A DNA stretch of 64,000 nt from a virus (taxonomy: Duplodnaviria; Caudoviricetes). This document shows, in pieces, positions 2,872 through 57,675 of the stretch. The stretch lies in the IMG/VR virus record IMGVR_UViG_3300024246_000001, positions 3,513 to 67,512 of that record, one strand, 5' to 3'. The first letter of the stretch is position 1; each line of letters begins with the position of its first letter. The position numbers and the translations under genes are program-made. The notes beneath the pieces are model-generated. The model was not told the DNA's origin. It ran no database searches and saw only the letters and a program-made list of their open reading frames with translations.

Positions 2872-3645
2872 ATGACTACTAGACGCAATCGCCCCAGCCC
2901 GCCACGTGCGCCCACCACAGCAGGCACCGGGTTCACCAGCAACTTGAGCGTGATCGACGGTGGCCTAGCCGACAACGCAATTGAGCCCGGCGCCACCTCG
3001 CCGGGAGGAGCAGCGCAGCCCTTCGACGAGGACGCCATGCTCATAGCCTCGTGGGACAAGGGCCAGATGGAGCCCGTCACCTTCAAGATCCACGAGCAAT
3101 ACCTCGCGTGGGGCAGGCTAATTACGGAGAGCAGGCGGTTCCCGGCCCTGCGCACGCGTTCGGATCTGGCGAGGTTAGGGTGGGAGCGCGTGGTGGCGTG
3201 GCTCTCCGGGCTTAATGGGGACGCCGCCGAGCGGAGCGTGATGCACCAATTGGCGCAGATGAACGAGAAGGTGGCGTGGGAAAGAAGGAAGCTCGACTAC
3301 GTGCGGTTCATCGAGGACTACACGCCAGTCATACAGGAGCAGTTAGCCCTGCCACACGGGCGCCTGCATGCGGCCAGAGTATTGCGGCGCATGCGCGGGC
3401 ACATCGACGCCATGGAGCCGGGGTTCTATAAGGACGTGTTCGACCAGATGTTCACGGCCAGGTTCGGGGCATATGAGCAGGCCGGGCTCACCTTGATCGA
3501 GGTCGCGGCTGAGGGGGAGGGGGAGGACGGGGCCGGGGCCGGGCTGGTGGAGGAGGGCGCGCACGTGGGGAATGGGTCGCGTGACCACAATGACGGCGTG
3601 GATATGGAGGAGATGATGCGGGAGATTGAGGACATGTTGAAATGA
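2872..3645 (+). CDS. hypothetical protein, possible RHH domain plus acidic tail
   Basis: TFKIHEQYL...FPALRTRSDLARLG; long ORF with high GC3. Confidence 0.65.
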   Translation: MTTRRNRPSPPRAPTTAGTGFTSNLSVIDGGLADNAIEPGATSPGGAAQPFDEDAMLIASWDKGQMEPVTFKIHEQYLAWGRLITESRRFPALRTRSDLARLGWERVVAWLSGLNGDAAERSVMHQLAQMNEKVAWERRKLDYVRFIEDYTPVIQEQLALPHGRLHAARVLRRMRGHIDAMEPGFYKDVFDQMFTARFGAYEQAGLTLIEVAAEGEGEDGAGAGLVEEGAHVGNGSRDHNDGVDMEEMMREIEDMLK

Positions 3646-53960: not shown

Positions 53961-54161
53961 TTATAGCTCCCCAAAATTATAGTCTGGTGGTGGCGGGCAC
54001 GGGTGCCTGTCGAGCCCACTCTTATACAGGAATTGGAACCCGCAGCGCGGGCACTGGTTAGATAGTCGCTCAACCTCGCCGATGAGTTGCTCAACATGTA
54101 TTGAGGTGATCCGCCCAGAGGCGAGCAGTTCGCGCAAGAGTCTAGTGTTCAAGCGGCTCAT
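53961..54161 (-). CDS. small C2H2-like zinc-finger protein
   Basis: CPRCGFQFLYKSGLDRH.C. Confidence 0.5.
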   Translation of the reverse strand: MSRLNTRLLRELLASGRITSIHVEQLIGEVERLSNQCPRCGFQFLYKSGLDRHPCPPPPDYNFGEL

Positions 54162-54886
54162 TGGTCGATCAACTTCTGCACGCGCACGTTGATGGGCTCA
54201 CCGCCACCACCTGCGTTTTCTTGCTTGGCGCTTGCCGCTGCGTTGGCGCTGACGATGATGTCCCGCACACCGCCGGAAGCATGGCCGGCGCTGCCTTTGC
54301 CACCCATGGCCCCGCCGTGGAGGCCCACGAACATCTCGATGTATTTGGGGTCGGCGAACACTCGCACCTCGCCAGAACCATGGCAATACCAGCACTCGGG
54401 TGCAGGTTCGCCGTCCTCGCCCGGCAAGTAGCCCTCACCCTCGCATTTGGTGCAATCCACGATGCGCGGCTCAGCAGCTTCCCCGAGCCCGTCGATCACG
54501 CGTTCCAGCCGGGTGCCGGACTTCGCGATGGCCATGCCCAAATTGCGCGCGCCTACCAGAGCGAGTAGTTCTGGGAGCTTGACCCCGAACTTGGCCATCA
54601 CCGTGTCGACCGGGTAGCGGATGCGGCCGGTCTGGCGATCGGGCAGGCTGGAGGTGGATGGATCGAGCATGAAATCATACATGAGCCGGAATTTGGACGG
54701 CGCGATGGGGCGACCCTGCTCGTCCTCGGCCGGCTCGGCGGCGATGGCGAATTCGAGGGCCTCGATGATGGTCGGTAGGCCGATGTGCTGTTCGAGGAGG
54801 GCGCGGGAAGCCTTGCGCGCAAAGTAGGGCGTGGCGACGGGCGCCGGCTGGAGCTCGGCGGAATCTGGCGGTTGGTCGGCGCTCAT
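54158..54886 (-). CDS. putative terminase small subunit with CxxCxGxG finger
   Basis: Helical, Gly-rich C-terminal tail; upstream of terL; CTKCEGEG...CWYCHGSG. Confidence 0.55.
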   Translation of the reverse strand: MSADQPPDSAELQPAPVATPYFARKASRALLEQHIGLPTIIEALEFAIAAEPAEDEQGRPIAPSKFRLMYDFMLDPSTSSLPDRQTGRIRYPVDTVMAKFGVKLPELLALVGARNLGMAIAKSGTRLERVIDGLGEAAEPRIVDCTKCEGEGYLPGEDGEPAPECWYCHGSGEVRVFADPKYIEMFVGLHGGAMGGKGSAGHASGGVRDIIVSANAAASAKQENAGGGGEPINVRVQKLIDQ

Positions 54887-56253
54887 GAGAGACATTCTAA
54901 CTCGCCGCATCCCCAGTGGAGGCCCAACTGGTGAGCAAGCAGGCAAGCTGCGTACGCTGCCTGGAGAGGTACGACTCCATTTCCGCAGGCGCGCAGTCGG
55001 TCCATCCGCCCGAAGTGTATTGGTCCGGCCAGCCCATCAACCACTCCACGAAGCGCGGATTCAGGTACAGCCGGGAGCCTGCCCAGCCCTCCGGAAGCGA
55101 TAATTGCGGCCCACCCGTCAACATCCGAGGGGCTTGGTGGCCAAGGAGGGAATTCGTAGGGGCATTCGGGCTCGGCGTGCCACCGTCCTTGCCGTCGCGA
55201 GTCGTCGGGGTTGCCCAACCCACAGCCTGCGCCGGAAGTGGTGTACCACCCGCTCCGAAACTCATGTTCGGCCCACCCTTCTCCCCGTCCGTCGCGCGGG
55301 GGCTGCTCCAGTTCTGCGCTTCCCCCACAAGCGTCCGCCCGTGCGTCACCCCGTGGCTCGGCGCCGCCTTCGTGTTGCGGTTCTCGTTCGGGCTCGCGCG
55401 GGGGGTAGGCCACTGCCCCGCCATCGTCTGGAGTGACGGCCTGACCGCCGCACCCTTGCTCAAGGACTGATTCGTGCCATAGGGCTGTGTCGGTGTTGGC
55501 CATTGCTCCATCGCCGCCGCTGCATGGTCCGGCAGATTCCGCCCGCCGTGTTTGGTTCCATACCTCCCATGGCGTGCCGCATCCGCTGCTCCCTGTGAAT
55601 CGTGGGCTTGTGGAGTCGTCCACTGGCGAACTTGTGACCCGAGGTCCACTTGCCGCTTCCCCCGTGAAGTCGCACCTTTCGCCGCCACGTTCTCCGCGCT
55701 CATCACGCGGCCACCGTTCGGCACATTGGGCGTCATCCACGGCGAGGATGAACAGTCGCTCTCTGCGATGTGTTGCGCCCACTTCCGCCGCCGAGAATAT
55801 ACCTGCCGCAACTTTGTAGCCCATCTCTTCCAATTGTGGTCCGACGATGCGGAATCCCTTATTGAGGTGGTTGGCGACGTTCTCAAACAAGCACCAAGCT
55901 GGCCCAACCTCTCGCACAATTCTGGCGACCTCCGGCCACAACCACCGCGGGTCGTCAACTCCACGCATGAGCCCGGCGACACTCTCTCCCTGGCAGGGGT
56001 AGCCGCCGATGATGCCGTCCACAATTCCACGATAAGGTCCGCCGCGGAAGGTTCGAAGGTCAGTCCAGATAGGAGCCGGGTCCATCGCTCCCGCTTCAAT
56101 AGCCTGCGCCAGCATGGCTGCGGCTGGTCCTTCCCTCTCCACGTAAGCGAGCGTGACGCAAGCTGGGTGAAGGATTCGGAGTCCAAGGTCCAGGCCGCCG
56201 ACTCCTGAGCAGAGACTGATAATCCGGCGAGGACGGCTTGTGGGATGATCCAC
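54883..56253 (-). CDS. C5 cytosine DNA methyltransferase, alpha frame (motifs I-VIII and X)
   Basis: SLCSGVGG (I), GGYPCQ (IV), FENV (VI), HRRERLF (VIII), RLRACGNGVVP (X); probable GTG start at 56253. Confidence 0.9.
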   Translation of the reverse strand: MDHPTSRPRRIISLCSGVGGLDLGLRILHPACVTLAYVEREGPAAAMLAQAIEAGAMDPAPIWTDLRTFRGGPYRGIVDGIIGGYPCQGESVAGLMRGVDDPRWLWPEVARIVREVGPAWCLFENVANHLNKGFRIVGPQLEEMGYKVAAGIFSAAEVGATHRRERLFILAVDDAQCAERWPRDERGERGGERCDFTGEAASGPRVTSSPVDDSTSPRFTGSSGCGTPWEVWNQTRRAESAGPCSGGDGAMANTDTALWHESVLEQGCGGQAVTPDDGGAVAYPPREPEREPQHEGGAEPRGDARADACGGSAELEQPPRDGRGEGWAEHEFRSGWYTTSGAGCGLGNPDDSRRQGRWHAEPECPYEFPPWPPSPSDVDGWAAIIASGGLGRLPAVPESALRGVVDGLAGPIHFGRMDRLRACGNGVVPLQAAYAACLLAHQLGLHWGCGELECLS

Positions 56254-56255
56254 AT
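54897..56255 (-). CDS. methyltransferase beta frame (WxTP repeats plus motif IX-like LNPRFVEWLMGWP)
   Basis: 452-codon ORF almost wholly inside the alpha gene in another frame; WMTP/WTTP/WPTP/WPTP/WSSP/WATP repeats. Confidence 0.8.
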   Translation of the reverse strand: MWIIPQAVLAGLSVSAQESAAWTLDSESFTQLASRSLTWRGKDQPQPCWRRLLKRERWTRLLSGLTFEPSAADLIVELWTASSAATPARERVSPGSCVELTTRGGCGRRSPELCERLGQLGACLRTSPTTSIRDSASSDHNWKRWATKLRQVYSRRRKWAQHIAESDCSSSPWMTPNVPNGGRVMSAENVAAKGATSRGKRQVDLGSQVRQWTTPQAHDSQGAADAARHGRYGTKHGGRNLPDHAAAAMEQWPTPTQPYGTNQSLSKGAAVRPSLQTMAGQWPTPRASPNENRNTKAAPSHGVTHGRTLVGEAQNWSSPRATDGEKGGPNMSFGAGGTPLPAQAVGWATPTTRDGKDGGTPSPNAPTNSLLGHQAPRMLTGGPQLSLPEGWAGSRLYLNPRFVEWLMGWPDQYTSGGWTDCAPAEMESYLSRQRTQLACLLTSWASTGDAAS

Positions 56256-56260
56256 ACGGG

Positions 56261-56845
56261 TCAGGCTCCGGCAAGTTCGCCCCGCCACTCCACAAGCTCG
56301 GCGTCCCGAGGCCCGGCCACCTTGAACTGGACCGCCGCGCCGCCGCCGTATTGGTGGATGAACACGCCGCAGTTGCGCGCGGTGGCCATGCAATTGCGCG
56401 TGCCTGGCGAGCTGCCGTCCCACACTGCCACGAGTAGGTCGGCCAGCGGGCGATACTTAGGCTCAAGGATGCCTAGCATGGCGGCGTTGCGGGCAGGCCC
56501 AGCCGACTTGCCATCCCTATCCCAGTCGCTGGCAAGGTGGGCTACCTCGATATCTGCTGAATCACTCAACAGCAAAGGCCATGATTGCTCCCATGCGACG
56601 TAGCCCGCCCTGTCGGCGAAGTAGATCGTGCGCGGCACGCCCCTCGCGCGCGCCCACCCGAGCGCAAGGTGATCTACGCCGGCCGCGTCCCCGAGCCGGA
56701 CCTGCACGTCGAATCCGGTGGTGGTGTAGTAGGCCCACTCGGCGTCCAAGAGGTCCCACACCAACTCGCGTGCGGTGATCCCGCGCGAGCCGCTGACGGC
56801 GATGATGAACGGGCCGGACATGTTGGGCGAGGGCAGCATGGTCAT
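56261..56845 (-). CDS. YspA/DUF2493 SLOG-family protein
   Basis: IAVSGSR...GDAAGVD..A..WA...DW...GKSAGPARNAAM...WDGSSPGT. Confidence 0.85.
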   Translation of the reverse strand: MTMLPSPNMSGPFIIAVSGSRGITARELVWDLLDAEWAYYTTTGFDVQVRLGDAAGVDHLALGWARARGVPRTIYFADRAGYVAWEQSWPLLLSDSADIEVAHLASDWDRDGKSAGPARNAAMLGILEPKYRPLADLLVAVWDGSSPGTRNCMATARNCGVFIHQYGGGAAVQFKVAGPRDAELVEWRGELAGA

Positions 56846-57150
56846 AATATACGTTCCACTGAATACCATTTCCGTACCCAACCACGCGCAAAGGTAGGTA
56901 CTTTGTCCTTATCGTAGGCTGTACGACGTAGAACGAAAACGCCCTTCTTTATTAAAGCATCAACAGTTGATAATCGAGCAAAGACAAGACGATCGGTTTG
57001 TCTGGTTCTATCACTAACCTCAGGTTCGTTTTGATCGGGTTCCACCGCGAAATATTCAGCCCAACCAGCGCCGAGTATTAGAAGCTCTTTGCCCTCGGCG
57101 ATATCATTCAACAACTGCGACTGCGCCGATGTTAATCTCGATTTGCTCAT
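56842..57150 (-). CDS. hypothetical protein (low GC)
   Basis: ATGA overlaps at both ends. Confidence 0.55.
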   Translation of the reverse strand: MSKSRLTSAQSQLLNDIAEGKELLILGAGWAEYFAVEPDQNEPEVSDRTRQTDRLVFARLSTVDALIKKGVFVLRRTAYDKDKVPTFARGWVRKWYSVERIL

Positions 57151-57638
57151 CGCGACCACACCCATCCCGCCACCAGCCCGAGCAAGGTGCCCGCCAGAGC
57201 CCCAGCCAACGCGGAGTAGTAGATCAACTTGCGCTCGTAATTAGGTGCGCATGTGGGGCGCGGCGGGGCGCCAGCCGGGCGGTAGAACTCTTGCCGAGGC
57301 TGCGGATTGAACCACTGCACCGGCGCATCTTCTTGAAGGTATTGGCGCATCGACTCATAAGCACGGCGCAGCTTGGCGTCTTGGTCGGCCATGATGTCGG
57401 TGGCGGTAGGTATTGGCCGTGACTGGGTTTGGCCACTGCACACCGGGCACGCCGGGCACGCCGCTACAAGGTTATCCACACCGGTACGGGCGCACTCCGC
57501 TGGTCGCCACACTACCCAAGGGTGTTTGTATGTGCGCCAAAAGTGCCCGCAGCGGCAGGCTCCCATCTCGCGCGTGGTTTCCCTGTGTACGCAGTAGTGG
57601 GCCTCGGACAATGAGGGCTGGTGCAGGGTGTCAGGCAT
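57147..57638 (-). CDS. Cys-rich protein with C-terminal TM helix
   Basis: ACRCGH, CPACPVC; C-terminal hydrophobic helix; probably leaderless. Confidence 0.6.
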   Translation of the reverse strand: MPDTLHQPSLSEAHYCVHRETTREMGACRCGHFWRTYKHPWVVWRPAECARTGVDNLVAACPACPVCSGQTQSRPIPTATDIMADQDAKLRRAYESMRQYLQEDAPVQWFNPQPRQEFYRPAGAPPRPTCAPNYERKLIYYSALAGALAGTLLGLVAGWVWSR

Positions 57639-57645
57639 GCGTGCC

Positions 57646-57675
57646 ACTATGTCACACAAGTTGCCCGCCAGTCAA
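57646..57675 (-). promoter_or_regulatory. sigma70-type promoter (TTGACT-N4-GGCAA class)
   Basis: TTGACT-18-CATAGT; ATG 8 nt downstream. Confidence 0.55.

Follow-up and report, generated by a model that had tools for sequence, protein, structure and literature searches.

How can a gene of 1.37 kb remain open in two overlapping reading frames, and what would each frame contribute to the product? The question is raised by a C5 cytosine methyltransferase gene on the minus strand of a 64,000-nucleotide stretch of viral DNA (Duplodnaviria; Caudoviricetes), positions 3,513 to 67,512 of the IMG/VR record IMGVR_UViG_3300024246_000001, which we refer to as the window. The gene belongs to the early region of a soil phage and follows a SLOG/YAcAr gene; its two frames are called alpha and beta here. 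A preliminary description had proposed a two-chain methyltransferase, and we consider this to be the probable answer: two chains started 2 nt apart would assemble, in the manner of M.EcoHK31I, into one C5 cytosine methyltransferase. The proposal is supported by the conservation of both frames, by a switch in the frame under selection, by a predicted alpha fold that lacks the small domain, and by a match of beta to gp71, a one-frame phage methyltransferase. What the analysis establishes is that both frames are conserved, that selection moves between them along the gene, and that the order of segments is that of the one-frame enzyme, together with the predicted folds. The elements of the locus, in window coordinates, are as follows.

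56266-56269, minus strand: GGAG, a Shine-Dalgarno-like element 10 nt 5' of the beta ATG, putatively the ribosome-binding site (RBS), judging from its sequence.
56250-56255, minus strand: ATGTGG, in which the beta ATG and, 2 nt downstream, the alpha GTG overlap.
54897-56255, minus strand: the beta open reading frame (ORF), +1 relative to alpha, 452 amino acids from ATG 56255 to TAG 54899-54897; assigned as the recognition chain.
54883-56253, minus strand: the alpha ORF, 456 amino acids from GTG 56253 to TGA 54885-54883; assigned as the catalytic chain.

The TGA of the upstream gene (56263-56261) falls between the GGAG and the beta ATG. The overlap of ATG 56255 with GTG 56253 and the two open frames behind it had been described before, and the sequence bears out both the coordinates and the frames. 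The earlier labelling of the starts was ambiguous, although the starts themselves were right; we assign the ATG to beta and the GTG to alpha. In the third frame of the gene, the open stretch at motif IX is just 18 codons.

To place the two frames in a comparative setting, we used a sample of 88 loci, made up of 80 IMG/VR contigs, 7 GenBank phages, and the window. A locus was counted as two-framed when its alpha-frame ORF reached from PCQ to GN(G/A)V and the +1 frame held an ORF of more than 270 codons, and 78 of the 88 loci passed; the frequent beta-frame stops in homologues that the preliminary description had named as refuting were not seen. The GC (guanine plus cytosine) content of the gene ranges from 0.48 to 0.69 across the loci, and high GC is therefore not the cause of the open frames. 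Expected stop counts were obtained from synonymous-codon shuffles of the selected frame. In the 78 loci, 0 beta-frame stops were observed over the catalytic part against 190 expected, and 0 alpha-frame stops over the cassette part against 205 expected; the third frame carries 396 stops in the first part (481 expected) and 299 in the middle (285 expected). For the window alone, 2.2 beta-frame stops are expected over the first 238 codons, with a probability of 0.055 of finding none, and 5.2 alpha-frame stops over the next 205 codons, a stretch that came out free of stops in 0 of 200 shuffles. On these sequence comparisons the double openness is not due to chance, and it is the comparative data that are decisive.

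The layout extends to cultured phages and well beyond close relatives. In C75C1, phi1026b, and Alfacinha1, beta is just ∼28-31% identical, and the same two open frames are found with starts a few bases apart. A more distant branch, with an alpha of the type YYNEWD...FAGIGGW, has the same layout in Klebsiella phage YMC16/01/N133, Tunturi_1, and phiKX1. The closest relative, P0003, is 79% identical. There are at least 839 beta homologues, many with 90-100% coverage, and the beta profile, run against 1.84 billion proteins, matched 47,555 cluster representatives at an expect value (E) of 1e-3 or below, 34,433 at 1e-10 or below, and 9,097 at 1e-30 or below; among the 150 best matches listed, nearly all begin at residue 1. 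The start region is conserved as well. Homologues share an N-terminal signature, MW(L/I)xxP, behind a conserved ATG or GTG, and in the 65 loci with a clear beta N-terminal end the beta start is ATG in 46, GTG in 17, and TTG in 2. A stop lies within 12 nt 5' of that start in 50 of these loci and directly abuts it in 28. Over the conserved Trp, the codon in the alpha frame is GTG in 48, ATG in 9, CTG in 7, and TTG in 1, with the alpha-frame NTG offset from the beta start by +2 in 46 loci and by +5 in 19.

Which frame is under selection was measured as the mismatch at alpha codon positions 1/2/3 in six independent close pairs. The first (catalytic) part gave 0.143/0.081/0.251, the signature of a coding alpha frame. 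In the middle, over the cassettes, the values are 0.404/0.191/0.165; since the peak at alpha position 1 is at beta position 3, beta is the selected frame there and alpha is drifting. The last 75 codons gave a flattened pattern (0.164/0.089/0.199), as expected if both frames are constrained. Read this way, the frame under purifying selection switches along the gene, from alpha in the first third to beta in the middle and to both at the end. As a yardstick, the position-3 mismatch in two usable flanking genes was 0.36, against values of 0.26 and 0.16 when the catalytic parts of these pairs were compared, which suggests extra constraint in the catalytic part but is too thin a comparison to lean on.

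The two frames divide the parts of a C5 methyltransferase between them. Alpha is made up of three segments.

55699-56226, minus strand: alpha residues 10-185, the S-adenosylmethionine (AdoMet)-binding/catalytic domain with motifs I, IV, VI, and VIII; predicted local distance difference test (pLDDT) score >90, supported by profile alignments.
55015-55698, minus strand: alpha residues 186-413, a low-complexity linker and passenger frame; pLDDT mostly 30-45, dipping below 50 again at 393-413.
54886-55014, minus strand: alpha residues 414-456, the motif X segment RMDRLRACGNGVVPLQAAYA and C-terminal helices; pLDDT 81-95.

Motif I is present as SLCSGVGGLD (residues 13-22), motif IV as PCQ (86-88), motif VI as ENV (124-126), motif VIII as HRRERLF (162-168), and motif X as GNGVVP (424-429). 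P86, C87, Q88, E124, and V126 are invariant across 52 alpha sequences, and N125 is nearly so. The motifs by which a C5 methyltransferase is recognized, namely I, IV with its catalytic Cys, VI, and VIII, are thus all found on alpha. The match to Pfam PF00145 (DNA_methylase) is confined to residues 10-175 (E 2.9e-28), TIGR00675 is matched at E 1.8e-21 with 77.2 bits, under the model cut-off of 100.65 bits, and the alpha profile aligns to solved enzymes just over motifs I-VIII (M.HaeIII 1-164, M.HhaI 7-175). An AlphaFold2 (AF2) prediction from the 52-sequence alignment is confident at residues 10-185 and ∼414-445 and disordered at 188-364. It matches M.HhaI with Z 21.5 and a root-mean-square deviation of 2.8 over 199 residues, with model residues 7-450 paired to chain residues 10-326. 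According to the model, alpha is a large domain that the motif X helix closes off, with no small domain. In a single-chain enzyme the small domain and motif IX lie between motifs VIII and X; both are missing from this chain, and at the position of the recognition domain alpha has a disordered low-complexity linker of ∼230 residues. The preliminary account of alpha, which gave it motifs I, IV, VI, VIII, and X around a low-complexity middle without motif IX, agrees with the sequence, the profile, and the AF2 model.

The segments of beta lie over the same DNA.

55740-56255, minus strand: beta residues 1-172, an N-terminal extension over the catalytic domain; stop-free in 78 loci, low-confidence model.
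55065-55739, minus strand: beta residues 173-397, six W-x-(T/S)-P cassettes, a putative target-recognition array assigned from sequence; beta is the selected frame here.
55026-55064, minus strand: beta residues 398-410, LNPRFVEWLMGWP, motif IX; nearly invariant columns of the beta family.

The cassettes begin at W173, W213, W252, W282, W316, and W347, so the six W-x-(T/S)-P starts and the motif IX segment LNPRFVEWLMGWP previously claimed for beta are both present. No Pfam or NCBIfam match was found for beta, and Pfam matched nothing on pieces of it or on eight long members of the beta family. Against the sequences of solved structures, the beta profile returned a single match, to the MS2 coat, which we rejected as spurious.

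The identity of the beta segments becomes apparent from one-frame relatives. Gp71 of Mycobacterium phage IrishSherpFalk (MK016496) carries, in one frame, motifs I-VIII, three LLPTP..DG..GG repeats, RLNPAFPEWMMGWPTGW, and then IIGNGVVPQQAA, with motif IX just ahead of motif X. Alpha 10-228 aligns to gp71 2-212 (E 2e-27), beta 318-365 aligns weakly to the LLPTP repeats at gp71 200-247 (E 0.058), beta 388-410 aligns to gp71 329-349, RLNPAFPEWMMGWP (E 4e-5, 61% identity), and alpha 414-435 aligns to gp71 359-380 (E 2e-4, 64% identity). The segments map onto gp71 in order, and the canonical enzyme is therefore read as alpha, then beta, then alpha. One-frame actinophage methylases share with the window motifs I-VIII, (L/W)PTP..D..GG repeats, a motif IX of the form (R)LNPxFxEWxMGWPxGW, and motif X as GNGVVP; they differ in that all parts are on one chain, whereas the middle third of the window gene is in the +1 frame. 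Other arrangements occur too. In Gordonia phage Upyo, gp54/gp53 form a sequential AquI-like split, with motifs I-VIII first and then, in the +1 frame, the repeats followed by motifs IX and X, and in the metagenomic ORF P0242 the N-terminal part of alpha is fused in frame to cassettes and motif IX. The family thus appears to tolerate several ways of cutting the enzyme, which fits published fragment complementation of C5 methyltransferases (PMC3404938). We note that in IrishSherpFalk itself (L089, 1871-2401) no stop interrupts 177 codons of the +1 frame across the catalytic domain, and that an LLPTP motif overlapping motif VIII stands at the end of this stretch; the open frame could be a chance product of a GC content of 0.62 or a trace of a dual-frame state.

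Taken as a two-chain enzyme, the gene would work as follows. One RBS would bring ribosomes to the overlapping starts, where translation would begin at either ATG 56255, giving beta, or GTG 56253, giving alpha. Alpha would provide the AdoMet-binding/catalytic core (motifs I-VIII), a disordered linker of ∼230 residues, and, to complete the large domain, the motif X helix, and beta would provide a 170-residue leader, six W-x-T-P cassettes of 30-50 residues, and motif IX, which together would make up the small, DNA-recognizing domain. The chains would then assemble into one active enzyme, as M.EcoHK31I and artificially split methyltransferases do. We infer from the arrangement that both starts are used, that the chains assemble, and that both chains are needed. 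In its descent the gene would go back to a one-frame enzyme in which the middle third was shifted to the +1 frame, and the beta leader and alpha linker would be passengers from which stops are excluded, since each chain has to read through them to its functional part. The identity of the beta leader between homologues is 0.303 versus 0.235 expected from the shadow of alpha, and a third-frame control is likewise raised (0.284 versus 0.239); the first ∼170 residues of beta accordingly look to be mainly a passenger kept open.

Several observations weigh against this explanation. The 78 loci were picked by a motif IX pattern, and they are not all independent. Ten of the 88 fail the two-frame test: in five of these, which comprise three distinct sequences, the alpha linker is interrupted by stops and the motif X segment is open, and two have a further frame switch before motif IX. 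The two-chain layout is therefore not the sole viable one. The beta leader shows little constraint of its own, yet so long a leader is widely tolerated. When beta alone was predicted from 74 sequences, the mean pLDDT was 57.6 and the predicted template modelling (pTM) score 0.28, and a wide structure search with the resulting model gave no fold match (best Z 3.2). With beta poorly folded and without a solved match, the grounds for taking it as the small domain are motif IX, its position in the gene, and the weak repeat alignment. As for the five loci with linker stops (L005/L006/L007, L023, L024), their N-terminal alpha piece is 197-208 amino acids long and ends just past motif VIII, beta is intact, and a separate alpha-frame piece of 90-149 codons, WPPGP...GNGVVP, is open; these variants may represent a three-piece enzyme.

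Among the alternatives, we think it unlikely that two chains are made but that beta starts internally near the cassettes, at the ATG of codon 174 within W-M-T-P, with the upstream beta frame left untranslated. The window and Alfacinha1 do have a Met within the first W-M-T-P, the N-terminal part of beta is under little constraint of its own, and internal Met codons of the M.EcoHK31I beta can act as starts (PMC2836561). In most homologues, however, the motif at this point is WPTP without a Met, and upstream of it the beta frame meets no stop as far as a conserved ATG or GTG with MW(L/I)xxP, often abutting the upstream stop. The profile matches, nearly all of which begin at residue 1 among the 150 best, speak in the same direction.

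A single chain could also be produced by two programmed frameshifts, reading alpha first, moving +1 after motif VIII, and returning by -1 before motif X. The functional segments do follow the order of the one-frame enzyme, the natural ORF P0242 joins the N-terminal part of alpha in frame to cassettes and motif IX, and a frameshift predictor flags actinophage methyltransferase genes (PMC10885494). Yet such a mechanism needs neither the 170 beta leader codons nor the ∼230 alpha linker codons to be open, and these are stop-free in the 78 loci against ∼395 stops expected; beta, moreover, owns a conserved start codon. In most loci the first beta WPTP shares nucleotides with the end of alpha motif VIII (FILAY / SSWPTP), and a single pass therefore cannot read both; the gap between motif IX and motif X is just 8-13 codons. 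No shared slippery motif was seen by eye in the junctions of 15 loci, in which no formal scan was made. We regard this mechanism as distinctly improbable.

It is equally doubtful, in our estimation, that alpha alone is a working enzyme and beta a separate overprinted protein, for example a regulator or one with another DNA-binding role. Such a role would suit a chain without a Pfam or NCBIfam family or a confident fold, and one that in phi1026b-type phages continues into ParB as a single ORF of 706 amino acids. It does not suit the absence of the whole small domain and motif IX from alpha, nor the finding that the best-conserved block of beta is the motif IX of the one-frame enzyme, just ahead of motif X in the DNA, nor the match in position between the cassettes and the gp71 LLPTP repeats between motifs VIII and IX. 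A pseudogene or assembly artefact with two compensating indels, which is what the layout resembles at first sight when set against a one-frame gene, can be dismissed as extremely improbable, as the layout recurs in dozens of diverged loci, in independent assemblies, and in cultured phages, with both frames open throughout.

Returning to the two-chain enzyme, the cassettes deserve separate consideration. Sorted by motif classes, the six cassettes of the window are of six different types, and the 78 loci have 1-7 cassettes each in 43 architectures. Motif classes were used in place of single-linkage clustering, which lumped 193 of the 274 cassette units; they leave 193 of the 274 units unclassified. 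From their sequences, the cassettes are to be regarded as a modular array and not as a recent repeat expansion. The earlier view of beta as repeat-expanded and unusually large does not hold on either count: its units are all of different types, and the chain is not unusual in the family, six cassettes lying in the upper tail of the 1-7 range. A more speculative idea, to which we give only modest credence and think rather unlikely as it stands, is that the cassettes, like the modules of the multispecific Bacillus phage enzymes, can be exchanged as units of target recognition, with a separate target for each of the six types. Placing them in a second frame over an alpha linker that is disordered and tolerates sequence change would let phages swap, add, or drop specificities with the catalytic chain untouched, and dual coding would then serve as an evolvability device against many restriction systems at once.

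Current annotation obscures the layout. GenBank annotates alpha alone in C75C1, in the phi1026b RefSeq record, and in YMC16, and it annotates beta alone in Alfacinha1 and a beta fragment alone in phiKX1; in none of the GenBank records examined are both frames annotated together. The expectation that gene callers would miss beta is thus only partly right, because it is one frame or the other that is called, and never both in these records. In Komagataeibacter phage phiKX1 (L087, 1335-2981), a 549-codon alpha-type ORF is unannotated, and the GenBank record has just a 202-amino-acid piece of the overlapping beta frame, as a hypothetical protein. In phi1026b (L002, 1489-3609), beta has no stop before the next gene and runs into ParB (Pfam PF17762), which gives the 706-amino-acid ORF mentioned above. 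Such beta-ParB ORFs are found in three clusters (P0267, P0268, P0278), one of which has 34 member sequences, and in three related Burkholderia phages the match lies under a single coding sequence named 'chromosome partitioning protein', which we take to be the beta-ParB ORF. It may be a real fusion of the recognition chain to ParB or an annotation read-through.

The surroundings of the gene in the window can be described briefly. The upstream gene (56264-56881, minus strand) is of the SLOG family (Pfam YAcAr, PF10686, E 1.4e-8; phrog_289). Neither Pfam nor PHROG gave a match for the genes at 54161-54895, 53964-54161, 56845-57165, and 57150-57659. No recognizable restriction gene was found among the neighbouring genes examined beside the methyltransferase gene, which is therefore considered an orphan methyltransferase. 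There is almost no space between the two stops (54883-54899) and the downstream gene: one candidate start, ATG 54895, is one base past the beta TAG, and another in the same frame, ATG 54886, overlaps the alpha TGA as ATGA. This packing of starts and stops suggests that translation of the downstream gene is coupled to that of both frames.

If both chains are made, their overlap of ∼450 codons would be among the longest conserved same-strand overlaps known in phages or bacteria, and it would be a feature of a family whose sequence clusters number in the tens of thousands, and not of a single oddity. It would show a route by which a frameshifted gene is rescued as a two-chain enzyme, and it would account for the puzzling low-complexity middle of many phage methylases. 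The locus would also offer a natural system for start-codon choice at overlapping starts, and its chains could serve as modular or split methyltransferases.

How, finally, does the window compare with known systems? The Bacillus phage C5 methyltransferases SPR and phi3T are single chains with several experimentally mapped recognition modules of ∼40 residues, placed in tandem between motifs VIII and IX. The window cassettes are like these modules in their tandem position, a likeness by description, and they differ in that the array is split onto a second chain. A long same-strand overlap in a phage methylase gene, with the host frame open across it, is also known from the ShiLan element, an HNH endonuclease encoded out of frame in an actinophage methylase gene (Arsenault, Gosselin and Gogarten 2025, PMC11855218); there, in contrast, the second frame is an inserted mobile homing endonuclease, whereas that of the window encodes methyltransferase parts. 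M.AquI (CYCGRG; PMC3404938) is a natural C5 enzyme split in the variable region whose two chains assemble, as proposed for the window gene. Its split is sequential, with motifs I-VIII plus a portion of the variable region followed by the rest and motifs IX-X (PMC3404938), whereas in the window motif X belongs to the catalytic chain and the overlap of the frames is complete. The window thus departs from the M.AquI type, in which the second chain carries both IX and X, as its GNGVVP is in the alpha frame. The AquI-like relative of this family is the gp54/gp53 pair of Gordonia phage Upyo.

The closest parallel is M.EcoHK31I of E. coli HK31 (YGGCCR; Lee, Kam and Shaw 1995, as cited in PMC2836561 and PMC3404938), in which alpha and beta are both required and the motif IX-bearing beta is encoded within alpha in a different frame; split C5 methyltransferases reassemble from fragments (PMC2836561, PMC3404938). 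Going by the published description, it shares with the window a second chain inside the first gene, in another frame and with motif IX. It differs in that its beta is small, lies within alpha, and carries motif IX alone, with the target recognition domain on alpha. The window beta, in contrast, matches alpha in length, begins 2 nt ahead of it, and carries the putative recognition cassettes as well; the overlap is complete, and a disordered alpha linker stands in place of the recognition domain. A recognition domain on alpha, as in the M.EcoHK31I type, is not what we find here, since the cassettes are on beta, where beta is the selected frame. M.EcoHK31I is the sole published overlapped two-chain C5 enzyme that we found in the literature, and we found no description there of this two-frame phage family. 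A layout proven for one E. coli enzyme thus appears, on comparative grounds, to be conserved across a very large and mostly misannotated family of phage methyltransferases.

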